Shown in pieces: positions 5,601 through 42,765 of a DNA stretch of 64,000 nucleotides. The DNA is from a candidate division WOR-3 bacterium. Lineage in GTDB: Bacteria > Hydrothermota > Hydrothermia > JBDRYB01. The stretch covers positions 64,001-128,000 of the forward strand of contig JBDRYB010000004.1 in the NCBI GenBank assembly GCA_039803205.1, written 5' to 3'. Position 1 is the stretch's first letter; the number at the start of each line of letters is the position of its first letter. Position numbers and translations under genes: made by a program. The notes under the pieces were generated by a model. The model did not search any database. It was not told the origin of the DNA and saw nothing but the letters and a program-made list of their open reading frames with translations.

Positions 5601-5820
5601 AGCGGATTTCTACAGGGAGAAGGGGGATTACGCTAAGGCTGAAGAACTCTACAAGAGGGTGCTCTCCATGGGGTTCACGGACACCATGGTCACGAACGGC
5701 CTAAGGGAAGTGATGGAGGCTCAGGGAAAAGGCCCTGAGGCTGAGAGCCTAATAAACTCTATAACGGAAAAGACGCCGCTCATCGCACCCGGAGCGGTCA
5801 ACCCACAGGGAGGAAGATAA
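2644..5820 (+). CDS. DUF2723/TMEM260-like multi-pass membrane protein (putative GT-C glycosyltransferase) with C-terminal TPRs
   Basis: Motifs WDVGEF, GVPHPPGTPLY, EAETY, RDRDYFY, FTNGDNDTFPLW; many TM segments; TPR-like helices; ATG 6 nt after TAGAAT. Confidence 0.8.
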   Translation: MNERLRSWFAGENLKWTLFGLITLFVFAVYFQTTAPTVVFWDVGEFLAAAHILGVPHPPGTPLYVILCKFFDILPLPLAFIYRLINGVPAVESVLRMTFVPIAMGAFTAGLVYLIIYDTITLWKPETPRHILHVSAAFAALMAAFGAVNWMNSIEAETYTPANFFALLAVYLTLLWYRRRGWDEWATRFLLAGTYLIVLATGIHLTAIFALPAMFVFVAIVHPRLIFGKEFIGLLGALILLAGLMEFTYQASNMSKGMVALGLALMVFYFWRADFFRDFTDVWTILFAVSGIALIYGIFANKTFAMVSGGLLSIVMMYIRGRLWKDWRGLALILIILAVSVEFWLIVRAYYLHHHPTAAWINEADPYNWQAFMDVLTRKQYEPAKMFPRRIAPVLQFKVFIKYFNWQYNTLSVVALIFLGLVGLVTQLSNDFSRKFLNRTKVVWLLGLVFILATIGFWFAFNLKDSPTQPVGGVHPTTGEPLLPTEVRDRDYFYATAHIMICLYAGIGLWELLRIAGKYLRKWWVVSAVFYPLAAFTVGWQFYKFYPECNRSRFYLAEDSAYNLLISPSTGGVMFTNGDNDTFPLWFAQEVLKIRKDIVIANLSLLNTNWYIRQVKAWGAPISFSYEDIDRLPPVIPLQCKVASVGPQGFEIDVPDTKGGLHRVYVSYERTPLLGLYGGRRDILRADLLQAQKTGEMLGLPIMTLRDFAIRDMIATSSGYKPKTFTRIPSADGAFMDVPLIYLDDPAAFAKEVFYGKAFSTNIYFAMTTTPEAWEGWENYLLMEGMAFRLVSYETGPRGGYPLENLSPDYTAYTLHDAMAPLEYLSEYSGYHKIPAERAFRYRGILDKRVPKTDRYDTNEKIVRNYAQVAFSLGSYLAQRGDLRRSADELELGKAFLDQIPSERAPGLERQKLYISLSLAEIYTKLGDYTKAEGFIKEAASIQPGPMIDMKMGDLMRAQGRLDEAARYYEKVLSSGMQDPLGFVLIADFYREKGDYAKAEELYKRVLSMGFTDTMVTNGLREVMEAQGKGPEAESLINSITEKTPLIAPGAVNPQGGR

Positions 5821-6944
5821 TGGGACACGCTTACACACCAGGACTTAAGGTCACAAAAGCCACAGTAATAAGAAAAGAGAGGAGGCTTCCTGTCCCAGGA
5901 ACGGTTCTCGTGAAGCTTGGGGACAGGGTCAAAGCGGATCAGACGGTTGCGAAGGCAGACCTTCCGGGGAATGTGGTTCCCCTGAATGTAGCTGGCAAGC
6001 TCGGCATACAACCAAACGAGGTCCCTGAGGCCATGAGGGTTAAGGAAGGCGAGGCTGTCAAAAAGGGTGATCTGGTTGCCGTATCCAAGGGCATAATGGG
6101 GCTCATGAAGACATCGCTAAAGGCTCCTTGTGACGGAACGATAGAATCCATATCCGCCATAACGGGACAGGTGATCTTGAGGGAACCCCCGCTCCCCATA
6201 GAGGTAAAGGCATACATTGACGGCAAGGTCGTTGAGGTAATAGAAAGGGAAGGCGTCCTGATTGAGACCACAGCGTCTTTTGTTCAGGGGATATTCGGGA
6301 TAGGGGGCGAGGTAATAGGCGAGATAAAGGTGGTGGTTGATTCTCCGGATCAGGAGCTTCTGCCATCCCTGATAACGGAGGACGCGAAAGGGAAAGTGAT
6401 AGTCGGTGGAAGCTTTATCTCAGTAGAAGCCATGCGCAAAGCCAGAGAGCTTGGCGCGGTGGCAGTTGTAGCAGGGGGAACAGATGACAGGAACCTAAAG
6501 GATTTCCTGGGCTATGATATAGGCGTTGCCATAACGGGCCAGGAGGATGTAGGGCTAACCGTGATCCTCACAGAAGGATTCGGAAGGCTGAGAATGGCGC
6601 ACAAGACCTTTGAGCTCCTCAAGAGCCTTGAGGGCAAAATAGCATCAGCTAACGGCGCAACCCAGATAAGGGCTGGCGTAATAAGGCCGGAGATAATCGT
6701 TCCAACCCAGGAGGAATCCCTGATTTCTGAGGAGACAGTGGACGAAGGGGTGCTTGAAATAGGTTCCCTGGTGAGGGTTATCCGGGAGCCTTACTTCGGC
6801 CTCATAGGCGAGGTCACGAAGCTGCCCCCTGAGCCAACCGTCATAGAGACAGAGGCCAAGGTCAGGATACTTGAGTTGAGGCTTGAGGATGGCAGGTGCG
6901 TTACCGTTCCGAGGGCAAATGTGGAGCTCATAGAGACCCTATAA
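5820..6944 (+). CDS. Conserved hypothetical protein (MGHAYTPGL family): barrel-sandwich hybrid repeats, alpha/beta domain and C-terminal KOW/SH3-like domain
   Basis: V..GD.V hybrid motifs (LVKLGDRV, VKEGEAVKKGD); GSLVRVIREPYFG KOW-like tail; TAATG overlap with upstream gene. Confidence 0.65.
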   Translation: MGHAYTPGLKVTKATVIRKERRLPVPGTVLVKLGDRVKADQTVAKADLPGNVVPLNVAGKLGIQPNEVPEAMRVKEGEAVKKGDLVAVSKGIMGLMKTSLKAPCDGTIESISAITGQVILREPPLPIEVKAYIDGKVVEVIEREGVLIETTASFVQGIFGIGGEVIGEIKVVVDSPDQELLPSLITEDAKGKVIVGGSFISVEAMRKARELGAVAVVAGGTDDRNLKDFLGYDIGVAITGQEDVGLTVILTEGFGRLRMAHKTFELLKSLEGKIASANGATQIRAGVIRPEIIVPTQEESLISEETVDEGVLEIGSLVRVIREPYFGLIGEVTKLPPEPTVIETEAKVRILELRLEDGRCVTVPRANVELIETL

Positions 6945-35846: not shown

Positions 35847-35923
35847 GGACAAATTATAAACGGGGAGATCGCGTTTGATCCGCAACGCGCGGGGAGGATA
35901 TAATTGGCGTCTAGGCGAAGCCC

Positions 35924-37177
35924 ATGCGAGATTTTCATATCGCAGACCCAAGGCTAGCTGAGGCTGGCCAGAAGCGGATAGAATGGGCAGGAGAACACAT
36001 GCCTGTCCTTGCAAACCTCTCCAAAGAGCACACCGGAACCCTGAAGGGCCTAAGGCTCTCGCTTTGCCTTCATGTGACCACCGAGACAGCGAATCTGGTT
36101 TTGGCACTGAGGGCCGCGGGTGCGGATACCAGGCTTTGCGCCTCAAATCCCCTATCAACCCAGGACGATGTGGCCGCGGCCCTGGCGGTCAATCACGGGG
36201 TTCCGGTCTTCGCCATACACGGCGAGGATAAAGAGACATATTATGAGCACATAAAAAGGTGCCTCAGCCACCGGCCCCACATAACCATGGATGATGGAGG
36301 AGACCTCACATCGTATATACACAAGGAGGATCCGGGTATGGCTGAAGGCGTCCTTGGGGGAACCGAGGAAACAACCACTGGGGTCATAAGGTTCAGGGCC
36401 ATGGAGCGCGAGGGGGTTCTACTTTATCCCATAATAGCGGTCAACGATTCCCGGACCAAGTTTCTGTTTGACAACCGGTATGGCACTGGTCAGAGCACAA
36501 TAGACGGGATACTCAGACTAACGAACATCCTTCTTGCCGGTAAGACCTTCGCTGTTGCAGGATACGGATGGTGTGGAAAGGGAATAGCTCAGAGGGCCAA
36601 AGGCTCAGGCGCGAGGGTCCTCGTCTGTGAGGCAGACCCAATTAAGGCGCTTGAGGCGGCGATGGATGGGTTTGAAGCGGTTAGCGTTGCTGAGGCCATA
36701 GCGAGGGCTGACATCCTCGTTACGGCCACCGGGGACAAGCATGTGGTTGACGAGGAGCACATTGCCCTGGCAAAGGATGGGATAATCCTGGCCAACTCTG
36801 GCCACTTTGATGTTGAGATAAACATCCCGGCCATACGGAAGGCCTCGGTTAAAGAGGATGAGGCCAGGCCTGGGGTCAGGCGCTTCACTCTGAGGGATGG
36901 CAGGAGGATATACCTACTTACGGATGGGAGGCTCGTTAACCTCTCAGGCGCTGAGGGCCACCCCGCTGAGGTCATGGATATGAGCTTCTCCAATCAGTTC
37001 CTAGCCGCAAAATACCTAAAGGAGAACGCTGGCAAACTGGAGAAGAAAGTCTATACCCTCCCTGTTGAGATAGATGAGATGATCGCCAGGGCAAAGCTCA
37101 GACACATGGGGATGGGCCTTGAAGAGCTGAGACCGGACCAGCTCAAATACCTTTCCGACTGGAGAGAGGGAACATGA
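35924..37177 (+). CDS. ahcY: Adenosylhomocysteinase
   Basis: CLHVT.ETA, SNPLSTQD, EETTTG, FDNRYGTGQS, GHPAEVMDMSF. Confidence 0.97.
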   Translation: MRDFHIADPRLAEAGQKRIEWAGEHMPVLANLSKEHTGTLKGLRLSLCLHVTTETANLVLALRAAGADTRLCASNPLSTQDDVAAALAVNHGVPVFAIHGEDKETYYEHIKRCLSHRPHITMDDGGDLTSYIHKEDPGMAEGVLGGTEETTTGVIRFRAMEREGVLLYPIIAVNDSRTKFLFDNRYGTGQSTIDGILRLTNILLAGKTFAVAGYGWCGKGIAQRAKGSGARVLVCEADPIKALEAAMDGFEAVSVAEAIARADILVTATGDKHVVDEEHIALAKDGIILANSGHFDVEINIPAIRKASVKEDEARPGVRRFTLRDGRRIYLLTDGRLVNLSGAEGHPAEVMDMSFSNQFLAAKYLKENAGKLEKKVYTLPVEIDEMIARAKLRHMGMGLEELRPDQLKYLSDWREGT

Positions 37178-38247
37178 CTCTCTTTCTCTGCCTCGCCTCT
37201 CTCCAGCCCCCAAGGAATCTCAGGAGCGCAACCTGCGTCGGAGATACGACCGCTGGCCTGCTCCTGATGTGGGATAGGAGCCCAGACGCGGAGCTATACG
37301 ATGTCTTTCTGGTTGATTCCACCGGAAACAAGCTCTATCTCGGAACGACGAGTCAGGACTACAACAGATACAAGCACTTTGATGTTAAGGCCGGGGAAAC
37401 ATACACCTTTATAGTTTCATCAGTAAGGGGCGATGAAAGAGCGGAATCAGCACCATACACGATCGCATTCAGGCCGGCTTGGTTTGATGTGACCAGGCTC
37501 AACAACCTCGTTTTCCTCCTGGGTTTCAGCCTCGTCTTTTTCGCTTATCTTTTGGTTGCCCGGAGGGGGATCCCCATGTCAATCCGGAAGATAGCGGGGC
37601 TTGAGGAGATTGACAACGCCGTTGGCAGGGCAACGGAGCTCGGCAGGCCCATACTCTTCATCCACGGTCTGAGCACCATAAGCGAACTGCCGACCGTGGC
37701 CGCTCTCACTGTGCTGAAACACATAGGAAAGAAGGCCGCTGAGTATGAGATCAGGCTCCTCGTTCCGAACAACGATCCCCTGGTCATGGCCGCGAGCCAG
37801 GAGGTCGTCAAGGAGGCATACACCGAGTCCGGGAGGCCTGACCTCTACAACGAGGATGACATATTCTTCGTCTCGCCTGAGCAGTTTGCCTATGCGGCCG
37901 CGGTGAACGGCATCGCCATAAGGGAAAGGGCAGGTGCTGTATTTCTCCTCGGATACTTCTACGCTGAGAGCCTGATGTTCGCTGAGGTCGGGCAATCGGT
38001 TGGCGCTATACAGGTCGCTGGAACATCAGCTACGGATCAGCTTCCCTTCTTCGTGGCCTCGTGCGATTACACCCTCATAGGAGAGGAGCTCTACGCGGCC
38101 TCGGCTTATCTCTCTGGAGATGCCCTGCAGATAGCGACCGTGAAAGCAGAAGACATATTCAAGCTCTTAACGGTCATTTTGGTTCTTCTTGGCTCCATAA
38201 CCGAGGCAATTGGTTGGAGGTTCATCTTTGACCTTTTGATGACCTGA
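37174..38247 (+). CDS. FN3 + DUF6754-like membrane protein
   Basis: N-terminal FN3-like domain, TM, then IRKIAGLEEIDNAVGRATELGRP...CDYTLIGEELYAASAYL, C-terminal TM. Confidence 0.7.
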   Translation: MTLFLCLASLQPPRNLRSATCVGDTTAGLLLMWDRSPDAELYDVFLVDSTGNKLYLGTTSQDYNRYKHFDVKAGETYTFIVSSVRGDERAESAPYTIAFRPAWFDVTRLNNLVFLLGFSLVFFAYLLVARRGIPMSIRKIAGLEEIDNAVGRATELGRPILFIHGLSTISELPTVAALTVLKHIGKKAAEYEIRLLVPNNDPLVMAASQEVVKEAYTESGRPDLYNEDDIFFVSPEQFAYAAAVNGIAIRERAGAVFLLGYFYAESLMFAEVGQSVGAIQVAGTSATDQLPFFVASCDYTLIGEELYAASAYLSGDALQIATVKAEDIFKLLTVILVLLGSITEAIGWRFIFDLLMT

Positions 38248-38258
38248 AGGAGGTTTAT

Positions 38259-39899
38259 ATGGAAGGCTTTTTTGCCATACTCATCTTAAATCAGGCTCCG
38301 GAGCTTGTCCCCCCGCAGAACCTCATGGTGGGAGTGAGGTCTGATGGCTACTGGATACTCTGGGAGCCATCCCCAACCGATTCCCTGATCACGAGATACG
38401 AGGTTTTCAGGGACGGCCAGTTCATAGGACGGGCAGGCATAGGGAAGTATGAGTTCGTAGACAAAGGCGTCTCAGGCCCCCACACATACTTTGTGAGAGC
38501 GGTAGGAGGCTCTAGATACCTGAAGGAGGTGGAAATCTGGGGAATGAGACTCCCCCTTCTCTTTTGGAAAGAGGAGGGCTACGCTGAGACGAAACCCATA
38601 ACGATAGCGCCCCTACCCGGTTTCACGGCATCCTATGAGTGGCAAGGCTTTGGCTTTGGAGGATACAGGCTTGAGTGGGGGTTCAGGCCCCAGGGATTCG
38701 TTGAGGTCCTGAGAAAAGGGGCTGTCATAGTCACCCTTCCGCCGGGAACACAGAGCTACACCGATCCTTCTGCAACCCTGGGCCAGGCGGATTACACGGT
38801 CAGAGATGTCAACTCCGGCATGGAAATTAAGCCAAACATAAGGGCGAGGTGGTTCGCTGTGCACTTCCGAGGCGTGAAGGTTTCGTGGAATCAGGTTGAT
38901 CAAGGTTTTACCCTAATGAGGTCATCGGAGACCAGAGAGCAGGACATGAAGACCGTGGATCGCACCCCTCCTGAGCCAATAGCGCAGATAAAGCCCGGGG
39001 AATCCACCTTCACGGATCGCGGAGCATCGGGGGAAATAGCCGCTCTCCTGAGAAGCAGATCCCCCATGAGCACATACCGTTATTACCTCGTATCAGAGGA
39101 CGGGTCTAGGGTCTTCTTCTCAGAGCCAGTAAGGCCTCAGCCCTTCAACTTCATGAAGCTCCCTGTCCTCATATTTGACATCCTTTTCGCTTGCGTTTTC
39201 TTCGGTTTTCTCTTCGCGGCGAAGCAGGGGAAACGCATGTTCATAAGGAAGATAGCCGGACTTGAGGAGCTTGATAACGCGGTTGGACGCTCAACGGAGA
39301 TGGGGAGGCCTATTGTATATGTGCCTGGCATAGGCACGATAGCTGACATAGAGACAATAGCCTCCTTGACCATACTCAAGCATGTGGCGAAGAAGGCCGC
39401 AGAGTATGAGACTGTGGTCATAATGCCTAACTTTGACCCAATGGTCACAGCCGCGGCCAAAGAGGTGATAAAGGAGGCATACACCGAGGCGGGAAGGCCA
39501 GACCTTTACAACGAGGATAATGTTTTCTATGTCGCTAGCCAGCAGTTCGCGTTCGCTGGCGCGGTGAGCGGGCTTATCGTTAGGGAGAAGCCAGGCGCTA
39601 CTTTTCTGATAGGTTATTATGCCGCGGAATCCCTTGTTATCGCTGAGGCAGGCTATTCGGTTGGAGCAATACAGGTTGCAGGAACAGCGTCTGTCCTCCA
39701 GACCCCGTTCTTCCTCGCCGCTTGCGACTATGTCCTTATTGGAGAGGAGGAATACGCGGCCTCAGCATACCTATCGCACAACGCCCTACAGATGGCAACC
39801 CTAAAGGCAGAGGATGTCTTCAAGGCTACCTTCGTGAGCTTTATAGTTCTTTTCAGCTTGCTGGTGAGCCTTGGCGTTTCCTTTATTTTCTTGAGTTAA
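38259..39899 (+). CDS. Multi-FN3 + DUF6754-like membrane protein (paralog)
   Basis: FN3-like repeats; IRKIAGLEELDNAVGRSTEMGRP...CDYVLIGEEEYAASAYL. Confidence 0.7.
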   Translation: MEGFFAILILNQAPELVPPQNLMVGVRSDGYWILWEPSPTDSLITRYEVFRDGQFIGRAGIGKYEFVDKGVSGPHTYFVRAVGGSRYLKEVEIWGMRLPLLFWKEEGYAETKPITIAPLPGFTASYEWQGFGFGGYRLEWGFRPQGFVEVLRKGAVIVTLPPGTQSYTDPSATLGQADYTVRDVNSGMEIKPNIRARWFAVHFRGVKVSWNQVDQGFTLMRSSETREQDMKTVDRTPPEPIAQIKPGESTFTDRGASGEIAALLRSRSPMSTYRYYLVSEDGSRVFFSEPVRPQPFNFMKLPVLIFDILFACVFFGFLFAAKQGKRMFIRKIAGLEELDNAVGRSTEMGRPIVYVPGIGTIADIETIASLTILKHVAKKAAEYETVVIMPNFDPMVTAAAKEVIKEAYTEAGRPDLYNEDNVFYVASQQFAFAGAVSGLIVREKPGATFLIGYYAAESLVIAEAGYSVGAIQVAGTASVLQTPFFLAACDYVLIGEEEYAASAYLSHNALQMATLKAEDVFKATFVSFIVLFSLLVSLGVSFIFLS

Positions 39900-39911
39900 G
39901 GAGAGAGAAAT

Positions 39912-40724
39912 ATGTTTAGAGCACCGGTTTGGCTCGTTTTCATAGCGGGGCTTTTCATGGCTTCGGCCTTTTTCATCCCCGTAGACCCGTTCCCCATGAT
40001 GCAGACCTGGGCCCTTAAGTGGGATGTCATAGTTAGCGCGTTCGCTCTGGTTGTCGGTATAGACTCCCTGGTCATGCATCACATCCGCAGGGTCCAGCGC
40101 AGGCAGAATGTCCTTTACTCAGGCACCCTGCTGGTTGGTTTCTGGGTCACTATAGCCTGGGGAGCCTTCGCCTGGTGGAGATACGGAGGGCCTTTTGCTA
40201 CCCAGTCAACATTCCTCTGGCTCTTCCGCTACATCGTCGTTCCAATGGATGCCACGATGTTCTCCCTGCTCGCGTTCTTCATAGCATCAGCCGCATACAG
40301 GGCTTTCAGGGCGCGGAACTTCTCGTCCTCACTTCTCCTTCTGTCAGCCGGGATCGTAATGCTCGGCCGGGTTCCTTTTGGCGATTGGGCCGCGGCTCCT
40401 ATTTTCACCGCCTTCGCGCTCCTCCTGGCCTTCTATTTCCTCAGGGTCTTCAGGCAATACGAGGGCTGGGGAAGGGGCATCAGGCTCGTGGTTGGAATAG
40501 CATTTCTCGCGGTTGGCATCGTTCTCCTATGGCCTGTTTGGCTGAATGGGCAGATATTCCCCGCTTTCCGGTTCGTGGTTCACCACATACAGGGCCTCGC
40601 GGGCTGGATAATGGAGGTCCCGCAGATGGCCGCGCGAAGGGGGATTGACCTCGGAATATCTCTCGGTTCCCTCGCTTTCGCGCTCAGGGTTCTCGTCGGA
40701 ATAGAAAGGGGGTATATGAGATGA
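39912..40724 (+). CDS. Conserved integral membrane protein
   Basis: About 7 TM; ATMFSLLAFFIASAAYRAFR, LGIERGY-type C-terminus. Confidence 0.7.
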   Translation: MFRAPVWLVFIAGLFMASAFFIPVDPFPMMQTWALKWDVIVSAFALVVGIDSLVMHHIRRVQRRQNVLYSGTLLVGFWVTIAWGAFAWWRYGGPFATQSTFLWLFRYIVVPMDATMFSLLAFFIASAAYRAFRARNFSSSLLLLSAGIVMLGRVPFGDWAAAPIFTAFALLLAFYFLRVFRQYEGWGRGIRLVVGIAFLAVGIVLLWPVWLNGQIFPAFRFVVHHIQGLAGWIMEVPQMAARRGIDLGISLGSLAFALRVLVGIERGYMR

Positions 40725-41602
40725 GATTCCTGTACATTTTGACCACCATAGACAGGCGAATAATCTATGCCCTGGTGTTTCTGGCAACCGCACTCCCATT
40801 CCTCTTCAAGAAATCCCCAGATGTCCAGATAACACCTGAGGTTGAAAGGGTTTACCGGTTCATAGACAGGCTTCCGGCTGGCTCAAGAATAGTTATCTCC
40901 GCTGACTACGGGCCTTCATCCATGCCGGAGATACAGCCCATGCTCTACGCGATATGCAAACACGCTTTCACGAAAGGGCACAAGGTATATCTTCTTACCC
41001 ACTGGACCTATCAGGGCCTCATTGCTGGTCAGGACGGAATAATGAGCGCTGTGAGGGACTTCAACAGGGAGATAAAGGAAGGCAAGCATCCGGAGAGAAC
41101 CGACACCCTCATAGAAGGGGTTGACTATGTTTCTTGGGGATTCAGGCCTGGCGGGATGGCCGTGATGCTTCTCATGAACTCTGACATAAGGATGGCCTTC
41201 TCCCGTGATGTGAGGGGCATACTCCTTGATAGCCTTCCGGCAATGCAGGGCTTCAGGAACCTCAGAGACCTCGGCACGGTTGAGAATCCAAAGGGCATAT
41301 TGATAGGGCTTGAAGCTGGTTTCACCGGCGATGTCTGGGTTGTATACGGCCAAGCTCAGGGGCGCTGGCCCATGGCCCTCGGTTCAACCGCTGTCGTCAC
41401 CCCATCATACTACACCTACCTTGAGGCTGGCCAGATAATCGGGATCCTCGGAGGTCTGAAGGGGGCCGCGGAATACGAGCAGTTGGCCGGATTCAAGGGC
41501 CAGGCCTCCATAGGAATGCTCTCCCAGAGCATAGTCCACATCCTCGTGGTTGTCCTCATCTTCCTGGGCAACCTGGGGTTTTTCCTGGCAAGGAGGAAGT
41601 GA
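40721..41602 (+). CDS. Conserved membrane-anchored alpha/beta protein
   Basis: IDRRIIY N-terminal TM, DYGPSSMPEIQPM, GILGGLKGAAEYE, C-terminal TM. Confidence 0.7.
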   Translation: MRFLYILTTIDRRIIYALVFLATALPFLFKKSPDVQITPEVERVYRFIDRLPAGSRIVISADYGPSSMPEIQPMLYAICKHAFTKGHKVYLLTHWTYQGLIAGQDGIMSAVRDFNREIKEGKHPERTDTLIEGVDYVSWGFRPGGMAVMLLMNSDIRMAFSRDVRGILLDSLPAMQGFRNLRDLGTVENPKGILIGLEAGFTGDVWVVYGQAQGRWPMALGSTAVVTPSYYTYLEAGQIIGILGGLKGAAEYEQLAGFKGQASIGMLSQSIVHILVVVLIFLGNLGFFLARRK

Positions 41603-41603
41603 G

Positions 41604-42260
41604 ATGAACATATGGGAACTAATAGGGATATGGTTGGCCGCGATTTTAACCTTCGCGGTTTTCTCTTTCCTATACCGGGATAACCCTGTCTACAAATGGG
41701 CAGAACATCTCTTCGTCGGGGTCTCGGCCGCTATAGGCGTTTATGCTACTCTGGATCAAGCAGTTGTGCCTGCTGTTCGGGAGGCCCTCGCATTCCCTGG
41801 GGTCTTCAAGCTCGTAACCTGGCTAGCTGTTGTGCTTGGCGCGTTGATCCTCTTCAAGCTCGAGATATTCGCCACATACCTCCCTAACCTGACCTTCCTC
41901 TCCAGGTATCCCATAGCGTTTGTTACTGGAATGGGGGTCGGCCTAACCCTCGTGAATGTGGTGAACGGGTATCTGTTCCCGCAGACGCAAGCGACATTCC
42001 TTCCCTTGTTTAACATCCAGGGCGCCAACTGGTTAACCATTCTGAACAACTGGATCATCGTCCTGGGCGTCGTGTTCGCGCTGATGTATTTCTTCTTTTC
42101 CGCGCAATACAAGGGAAGGCTGGGAATGGTTCTCAGGGTGGGCATAACCTTCCTAATGGTTGCCTTCGGCGCTATGTTCGGATACACGGTCATGGCAAGG
42201 CTATCCCTGCTCATAGGCCGGATATACTTCCTGCTTCACGACTGGCTACACCTAATATAG
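41604..42260 (+). CDS. Conserved integral membrane protein
   Basis: FSFLYRDNPVYKWAEHLFVGVSA, FGAMFGYTVMARLSLLIGR; about 6 TM. Confidence 0.7.
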   Translation: MNIWELIGIWLAAILTFAVFSFLYRDNPVYKWAEHLFVGVSAAIGVYATLDQAVVPAVREALAFPGVFKLVTWLAVVLGALILFKLEIFATYLPNLTFLSRYPIAFVTGMGVGLTLVNVVNGYLFPQTQATFLPLFNIQGANWLTILNNWIIVLGVVFALMYFFFSAQYKGRLGMVLRVGITFLMVAFGAMFGYTVMARLSLLIGRIYFLLHDWLHLI

Positions 42261-42273
42261 CTGGATTGCGAGA

Positions 42274-42765
42274 ATGCGGCTGAAGCTCAGGTGGAAGAAC
42301 CTCGTCATCGCGGCCTCATTGTGGGCTGTGATAACCTCTCTGGACCAGCTCACCAAGTTCCTCATAACCAGAAACCTGAGGGCGTATGTGGATTATCCTG
42401 TTCTCGGCAACTTCTTCAAGCTGACCCTCGTTTATAACAAGGGGATCCTGTTCGGGATAAACCTCTTCCCGTCTGACTGGGGGCCGATCCTATATCCGAT
42501 CGTGATGATCGCCATTATGATACTTGTCCTCGTCTCGCTTGGTCTTGAGGGGAGATGGCCAAACACCGTAGCATACGGAATGATCCTCGGAGGAGCGCTT
42601 GGCAATCTGATAGACCGGTTTAGGATAGGCAGGGTCGTTGATTTCTTGAACTTTGGGATAGGGGAGCTACGGTGGCCATACTTCAATATCGCTGACAGCG
42701 CGATAGTCTGCGGGATGATAACTCTTATTGTCTTCTCGTTCTTCAGGAAAAAGGGTGCGGAATAG
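42274..42765 (+). CDS. lspA: Lipoprotein signal peptidase II
   Basis: DQLTK, N.G..FG, GGALGNLIDR, VVDF, FNIADS. Confidence 0.95.
   Translation: MRLKLRWKNLVIAASLWAVITSLDQLTKFLITRNLRAYVDYPVLGNFFKLTLVYNKGILFGINLFPSDWGPILYPIVMIAIMILVLVSLGLEGRWPNTVAYGMILGGALGNLIDRFRIGRVVDFLNFGIGELRWPYFNIADSAIVCGMITLIVFSFFRKKGAE

Follow-up and report, generated by a model that had tools for sequence, protein, structure and literature searches.

The window analyzed here is a 64,000-nucleotide (nt) stretch of contig JBDRYB010000004.1 (positions 64,001 to 128,000, assembly GCA_039803205.1) from a candidate division WOR-3 bacterium, and the subject of this report is a run of five membrane-protein genes within it, which we refer to as A1, A2, C, D, and E. 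These genes belong to a real, widespread, and undescribed system, and apart from its duplicated A gene there is nothing unusual about the locus; close homologs carry the source labels WOR-3/Hydrothermia. The original prediction, made from the window alone, described five tightly coupled genes between ahcY and lspA, and this description holds. Five plus-strand open reading frames (ORFs) lie between flanking genes matched by PF05221 and PF01252, the pairs ahcY/A1 and C/D overlap by 4 nt each (ATGA) as read from the sequence, and the remaining spacing is 11 nt (A1-A2), 12 nt (A2-C), 1 nt (D-E), and 13 nt (E-lspA). The genes are listed below (aa, amino acids; TM, transmembrane helix); labels beginning with L, G, and P, and the contig prefixes C1 and C6, are our identifiers for loci, genomes, proteins, and contigs.

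37174-38247, plus strand: A1, 357 aa; short hydrophobic signal at the N terminus, one FN3 domain, TM1, an alpha/beta DUF6754 domain (predicted to be cytoplasmic), TM2
38259-39899, plus strand: A2, 546 aa; DUF6754 paralog with about three FN3-like repeats, best read as a tandem duplicate specific to the lineage
39912-40724, plus strand: C, 270 aa; polytopic, the family core having six helices (predicted N-in) and being joined by an insert of about 60 aa; R130 is invariant
40721-41602, plus strand: D, 293 aa; TM1, a Rossmann-like alpha/beta domain (predicted to be extracytoplasmic), TM2
41604-42260, plus strand: E, 218 aa; polytopic, six to seven helices, predicted N-out
35924-37177, plus strand: ahcY (PF05221); context gene that overlaps the start of A1, outside the system
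42274-42765, plus strand: lspA (PF01252); downstream context gene, outside the system

The conserved unit is a four-gene cassette

Species genomes were scanned with an alignment of D, which gave at least 564 relatives; the locus counts below are taken from the best 80 of these, which correspond to 78 loci. The order A-C-D-E was found in 67 of the 78 loci, three of them with an insertion, and tandem A genes were found in none. The remaining 11 loci comprise seven that end at a contig edge, one without an A gene upstream, and three lone D genes. Arrays of two or three cassettes are common, and contig searches of the source genome gave no second copy of A, C, D, or E. In members of two related families (G005 and G009) the arrangement is ahcY-A-C-D-E-lspA with a single A, while a genome of the same genus (G002) has A-A-C-D-E, and in G001 the two A genes are present on split contigs. 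A quick tree built from 85 selected cores placed A1 and A2 together in a single lineage clade, with moderate support (Shimodaira-Hasegawa-like approximate likelihood-ratio test, 88-92). Because the tree and the synteny agree, the second A is best read as a local, lineage-specific duplication. The five-gene complex of the original prediction therefore survives in that the membrane system is undescribed and its genes are found together in many genomes, but the conserved unit has four genes, and a five-gene unit was rejected. Membership of ahcY or lspA was rejected as well; ahcY adjoins the cassette in the related G005 and G009 families, yet in most of the remaining loci it does not.

To judge from distance matrices, the four subunits evolve in concert. 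Paired matrices correlate with r of 0.72-0.78 over 83 cassettes. When partners were shuffled within loci (30 cassettes, 12 loci), the mean r fell to 0.12-0.19 as compared to 0.74-0.88 observed, and for each of the six subunit pairs none of 5000 shuffles attained the observed value. In genomes with more than one cassette, each A co-evolves with its own C-D-E and is thus a fixed partner rather than a swappable receptor. The interchangeable receptor subunits proposed originally are thus not the general design, and freely exchangeable receptors were rejected on the basis of these shuffles and of an ectodomain that is optional (see below). In this genus only, two A variants share one C-D-E set, and local interchangeability is possible. 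We consider it very likely that A, C, D, and E form one complex. There are hints of A-C and D-E sub-modules: at L131:5224-7182 (G003) A and C are adjacent and D-E does not follow, and L048, L073, and L075 are also broken between C and D.

An ATPase-like module accompanies the cassette

Clustering of 1170 flanking ORFs revealed two recurrent neighbors, H and M (21 and 19 loci, respectively), together with two small proteins, X and Y, that recur too. M and/or H is located within 8 kb of the cassette in 22 of the 78 loci, and complete operons with all eight genes are seen in two gene orders, Y-X-M-H-A-C-D-E or Y-X-A-C-D-E-M-H (L033, L035, L057; L114, L115). X and Y directly flank A in several operons. 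The source genome contains all eight genes scattered on three contigs, with M at C1:255005, X at C1:89735, and Y at C6:102517. H lies in the same window as the cassette and is the sole match in the genome to the neighbor profile (E 6.6e-164):

5820-6944, plus strand: H, soluble partner; barrel-sandwich-hybrid repeats, a central alpha/beta part, and a KOW-like end; 30 kb upstream of the cassette

The H gene overlaps the end of a gene for a 1060-aa membrane protein and is followed by an ORF which we take to be MarR-like. The M-H-X-Y module was overlooked in the original prediction and is the main clue to the mechanism.

The M family matches PF13941 (GlmL/MutL), with the copy in L041 reaching 420 bits. 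Three motifs are conserved, namely DCGSTTTK (16 of 18 members, the other two rows being without the N terminus), DIGGATTD (18/18), and GSGGxLSH (18/18), which we take to be the phosphate-1, phosphate-2, and adenosine motifs of the ASKHA (acetate and sugar kinase/Hsc70/actin) superfamily. M of the source genome carries about 130 extra C-terminal residues and scores below all three NCBIfam GlmL cut-offs (241 bits against 475, 227 against 600, and 172 against 204). A PDB sequence search with the M and H profiles gave nothing significant. By its motifs and family match, M is predicted to be an ATPase-like, chaperone-type ASKHA protein that is closest to the GlmL type. In the H family, Pfam matches are to Biotin_lipoyl (14 of 21 members), RnfC_N (14/21), and KOW (6/21), with a weak match to NqrA_N. 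Position 90 is Lys in 16 of the 21 members, and none of the His or Cys residues in this set is invariant.

The original prediction named co-occurrence in other genomes as a check, and besides the 67 loci with A-C-D-E, all 41 of the relatives have A and all 41 have M. Of 111 genomes in the phylum of G041 (Nitrospira lenta), one and the same set of 18 contains A, H, and MutL-family matches, and there is one further MutL fragment at a contig edge. Among 221 genomes of the phylum of G042 (Planctomycetota), 76 have A, 74 have H, and 73 have both (73 of the 77 with either). A and H are retained together also where their genes are unlinked or far apart (G334, G263, G242). Every one of the 151 genomes in the phylum of G043 contains A, mostly with four to six matches, while M is present in 41 of 41 and is single copy in 40; one M gene accompanies one to about five cassettes. 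Based on this pattern, A-C-D-E in all likelihood works with M-H. Records of nitrifying and anammox bacteria contain the system as well, namely L076 (N. lenta) and P0240 (source label Ca. Brocadia pituitae). Separately, L074 and L090 carry the source labels Ignavibacteriales and Ca. Acidoferrum and fall in one phylum, which makes such labels unreliable for phylum counts.

A has a conserved core and an optional ectodomain

The description of A1 and A2 as DUF6754-like paralogs with a conserved core is borne out. Both match DUF6754 (PF20539, gathering score 27), A1 at E 2e-108 (361.8 bits) and A2 at E 1.4e-100 (336.1 bits), share 56% identity over 277 aa, and contain both of the motifs quoted originally. 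About one and about three FN3 domains had been proposed, and the former is supported by structure. The A1 model (predicted local distance difference test, pLDDT, 92.4) shows a single FN3 fold with Z 13.2 and a root-mean-square deviation (rmsd) of 2.0 Å over 90 residues, with which Foldseek agrees; the fold search with this model was filled by FN3 matches, masking the DUF6754 core. In A2, the family FN3 profile is matched at residues 33-89 with E 1e-7 and at 207-293 with E 1e-4, and there is no more than a trace (E 1.1) at 157-176, so that about three repeats is reasonable but the middle one is weakly supported.

Across the A family, mean identity is 27% for the ectodomain as compared to 51% for the core. 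Fewer than 75 residues precede the core in 17 of 75 cassette A ORFs (with mechanically assigned starts), which is too few for an FN3 domain, and in L114 and L115 complete systems have an A that lacks an ectodomain. The FN3 ectodomain probably serves as a spacer or binding arm in the periplasm and is optional. A Cys is conserved in 78 of 83 A proteins, and the soluble domains of both A and D contain many invariant acidic residues. A D-x-P-x-D-x-G motif is found in 151 of 206 family ectodomains and is absent from those of A1 (37174-37480) and A2 (38259-39150). Very short hydrophobic signals of about ten residues with no basic N-region start several probably exported proteins of the source genome (37174, 38259, L101:1444-2454).

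C, D, and E are the other subunits of the proposed membrane complex

As described originally, C and E are polytopic and D consists of two TM helices around an alpha/beta domain. None of the three has a significant Pfam or NCBIfam match. C has two hydrophobic segments in its insert, and its charge pattern alternates cleanly as N-in. E is marked by the conserved segments DNPxY..AEH and FGASFGYTVMxR; it had no named match in the protein atlas, in which D was found only in unnamed clusters, and no match in a plasmid collection. The D model is of high quality (pLDDT 95.5, predicted TM-score 0.91). With an E limit of 0.001, Foldseek had no match to it, and VIA gave generic Rossmannoid matches only, the best being MTH777 (Z 9.1). 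Invariant residues of D are E70, D163, W206, E253, and N284. Across the cassette there are about 16 conserved helices, and conserved polar residues include R130 of C, H273 and N284 of D, and D26 and E34 of E. In C, D, and E no Cys is conserved at 85% or more, and no Fe-S, heme, or flavin motifs were seen.

The models of A1 and D have an identical order of elements, that is, TM helix, helix, six beta-alpha units, and TM helix. The two domains are predicted to lie on opposite faces, that of A inside and that of D outside, because their Lys plus Arg biases are opposite: the family mean around TM1 of A is 4.1 after and 1.3 before the helix, and for D it is 3.2 before and 1.2 after the first helix, with 2.4 after the last. 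A natural D-E fusion (P0386) contains one extra TM between its halves, from which E is predicted to be N-out. The predicted orientations of C and E are thus opposite.

D also accepts large inserts at one position (P0292, P0344, P0246), which we take to be repeats of a CARDB/Ig-like or a HEAT-like kind, or a second copy of an alpha/beta domain; for P0292, the presumed CARDB-like inserts would fit a D domain that lies outside. Three extra D genes in a run behind a cassette, as well as lone D genes, were noted (L036:7059-9758, L087:2028-4727, L025, L059, L081), which suggests that D, and not A, can be the multiplied subunit.

Proposed mechanism and alternatives

The core has many helices with conserved polar residues, is flanked by one soluble domain per face, and is kept together with the ATPase-like M. 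This leads us to read the eight-gene system as a putative ATP-energized inner-membrane transporter of an undescribed kind; we give this reading a probability of about 0.45. In this model C and E would form the membrane core together with four anchor helices contributed by A and D, with the Rossmann-like domain of D outside and the A domain of the same layout inside. Cargo would be captured at D and pass through the C/E core to A, and cytoplasmic M-H would use ATP to remodel A and reset the complex, in a manner similar to chaperone-like reactivases, which spend ATP to displace a subunit and free a bound cofactor. At the present locus, the duplicated A could give two versions that either alternate or assemble jointly on a single C-D-E set. 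The full proposal goes further and is put a little more tentatively: a new class of primary-active transporter with an actin/Hsp70-fold (GlmL-type) ATPase as its motor, distinct from ABC (ATP-binding cassette), P-type, and AAA+ systems, with pseudo-symmetric A-C and D-E halves, a Rossmann-like domain on each face, one M-H motor for several paralogous units, and a core function in whole bacterial lineages. We know of no transporter class driven by a GlmL-type ATPase. The system itself is near-universal in some lineages that have received little study. If the proposal is true, it would add a new way of coupling energy at membranes, and many "MutL/glutamate mutase accessory" annotations in these phyla would be wrong.

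Several points weigh against the transporter reading. Clues to the cargo are lacking, with no riboswitch at the operons in Rfam scans (9 + 6 sources without a match) and no recurrent metabolic neighbor beyond lineage synteny. Profile comparison gave no significant homology between the two halves: hhalign placed 96 columns of A and D in register at E 0.052, an alignment that suggests a duplication without reaching significance, and for C and E it found nothing. Profiles of C and E gave nothing significant against PDB sequences, and neither showed sequence similarity to a transporter family. Diverged fusions of M with H, or M and H side by side, in which H stops before the KOW-like region, occur without A-C-D-E alongside (L107:2468-5374, L121:6780-9512, L122, L123, L124; M and H are fused in L107), which suggests that the pair can have other clients and that the ATPase module has a second use. 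The absence of a glutamate mutase E subunit from 5 of 5 genomes counts in favor of the reading, but the mutase/aminomutase searches (PF06368 and PF09043, each 0 of 5 genomes) had no positive control above the cut-off. H was not found in one of ten cassette-bearing genomes (G049) or in 3 of the 76 A-positive genomes of the G042 phylum. Finally, genomes within a phylum are kin, so that the counts overstate independence, and in the N. lenta set the A, H, and M genes are in one operon.

The same features can be arranged differently. In a transmembrane signaling or envelope-assembly scaffold, D and the FN3 domains outside would sense or hold an envelope component, C/E would relay a change of conformation, and M-H would be a nucleotide switch rather than a motor for transport. 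The FN3-TM-cytoplasmic-domain layout of A, the variability of its ectodomain relative to the core, the universal and multi-copy presence in whole lineages, and the lack of cargo-related neighbors would all suit such a device. Among the conserved neighbors, however, there is no regulator, kinase, or DNA-binding output, the roughly 16 conserved helices with polar residues exceed what a simple receptor needs, and the ectodomain is missing from the complete systems L114 and L115, so we consider a scaffold unlikely. Transmembrane group transfer is rather unlikely as well. Here M would activate a small molecule with ATP, as hydantoinase/oxoprolinase-type ASKHA proteins do, H would carry or channel it, and A, C/E, and D would pass the group to an acceptor in the envelope. 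M does have a weak Hydantoinase_A match (E 2e-4, below the cut-off), H has lipoyl-like hybrid domains with the frequent Lys 90, and the invariant acidic residues of A and D and the conserved Cys of A are in its favor. Yet the putative carrier Lys is not invariant, H offers no invariant His or Cys in its place, M is closest to GlmL-type chaperones, and D matches no enzyme family specifically.

Ion pumping and energy conversion in the manner of Rnf/Nqr, in which C/E would be the antiparallel pair and D would act as a flavodoxin-like subunit on the outside, would explain the weak RnfC_N and NqrA_N hybrid-domain matches of H, the opposite orientations predicted for C and E, and the likeness of D to transhydrogenase domain III, which is among several tied matches (Z 8.1, rmsd 3.5-3.7 Å, 143-145 residues). 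We find it improbable, because the membrane subunits lack the conserved Cys and the Fe-S, heme, or flavin motifs expected of it, no Rnf/Nqr membrane-subunit family is among the listed Pfam matches of 100 C and 93 E members (25 of 35 families for C), the hybrid-domain match reflects a generic fold, and the partner is ATPase-like and not an oxidoreductase. Most improbable of all is that A-C-D-E is a self-contained secondary carrier or channel with which M, H, X, and Y only travel along. Opposite-facing architecture is typical of secondary carriers, and orphan M-H pairs do exist, but co-retention persists where the genes are unlinked, including in the source genome, and in several operons X and Y are the immediate neighbors of A.

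Comparison with known systems

In the searches run, the system matched no characterized transporter, as had been supposed originally. A1 and A2 are full members of DUF6754, an entry that covers one subunit and gives no function, and C, D, and E fall outside the family libraries searched. M shares the ASKHA motifs with the GlmL/MutL families (PF13941, NF040745, TIGR01319) but sits with H and membrane genes and, as noted, below the NCBIfam cut-offs; no mutase or aminomutase subunits were seen beside M in the loci read. MutL/GlmL is described as a chaperone for the reactivation of glutamate mutase (PMC4682846), and in the glycerol/diol dehydratase reactivase an Hsp70-like ATPase is described as swapping a subunit and releasing the cofactor (PMC7674605).

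The use of one motor gene for several cassettes is reminiscent of group II energy-coupling factor (ECF) transporters, whose membrane modules draw on a common ATPase module that is often encoded at another site. ECF transporters combine ABC-type ATPases and EcfT with single-chain S components. Here, the repeated unit is instead a four-protein cassette, and family-profile searches found no P-loop ABC ATPase, EcfT, or ABC permease among the eight conserved families. Rnf/Nqr complexes and mannose-family permeases of the phosphotransferase system (PTS) likewise have paired polytopic subunits, along with alpha/beta domains that are soluble and partners of hybrid fold. A-C-D-E-M-H differs in that ligands for redox cofactors and an invariant His that could be phosphorylated are both missing, and its sequences match neither of these families; with respect to a PTS-type relay, H lacks an invariant His and A has the Cys conserved in 78 of 83 proteins. 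No papers that mention DUF6754 or the six family accessions were found, subscription papers and bioRxiv supplements being outside the coverage, and the accessible portions of the literature on GlmL, MutL, reactivases, TraDIS (the transposon-directed sequencing of insertion sites), and Nitrospira/Kuenenia contained nothing on the system. Supplements of PMC10632474 (5 files), PMC3655542 (12 of 13 files), and PMC12053348 (3 files) showed no occurrence, although tables with locus tags only would not reveal these genes.

Additional observations

Import of cobalamin under riboswitch control was considered and received no support from the Rfam scans. Among eight further sources, the sole aptamer was a c-di-GMP-I (cyclic dimeric guanosine monophosphate) element at L126:1047-1173, which lies about 9 kb from the start and about 5 kb beyond the end of the cassette with other genes between and is unlinked to it. 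Just upstream of ahcY, a sigma70-like site at 35875-35904 (TTGATC-18-TATAAT) matches the consensus, and the consensus only, at 10 of 12 positions and may drive the whole run from ahcY to lspA.

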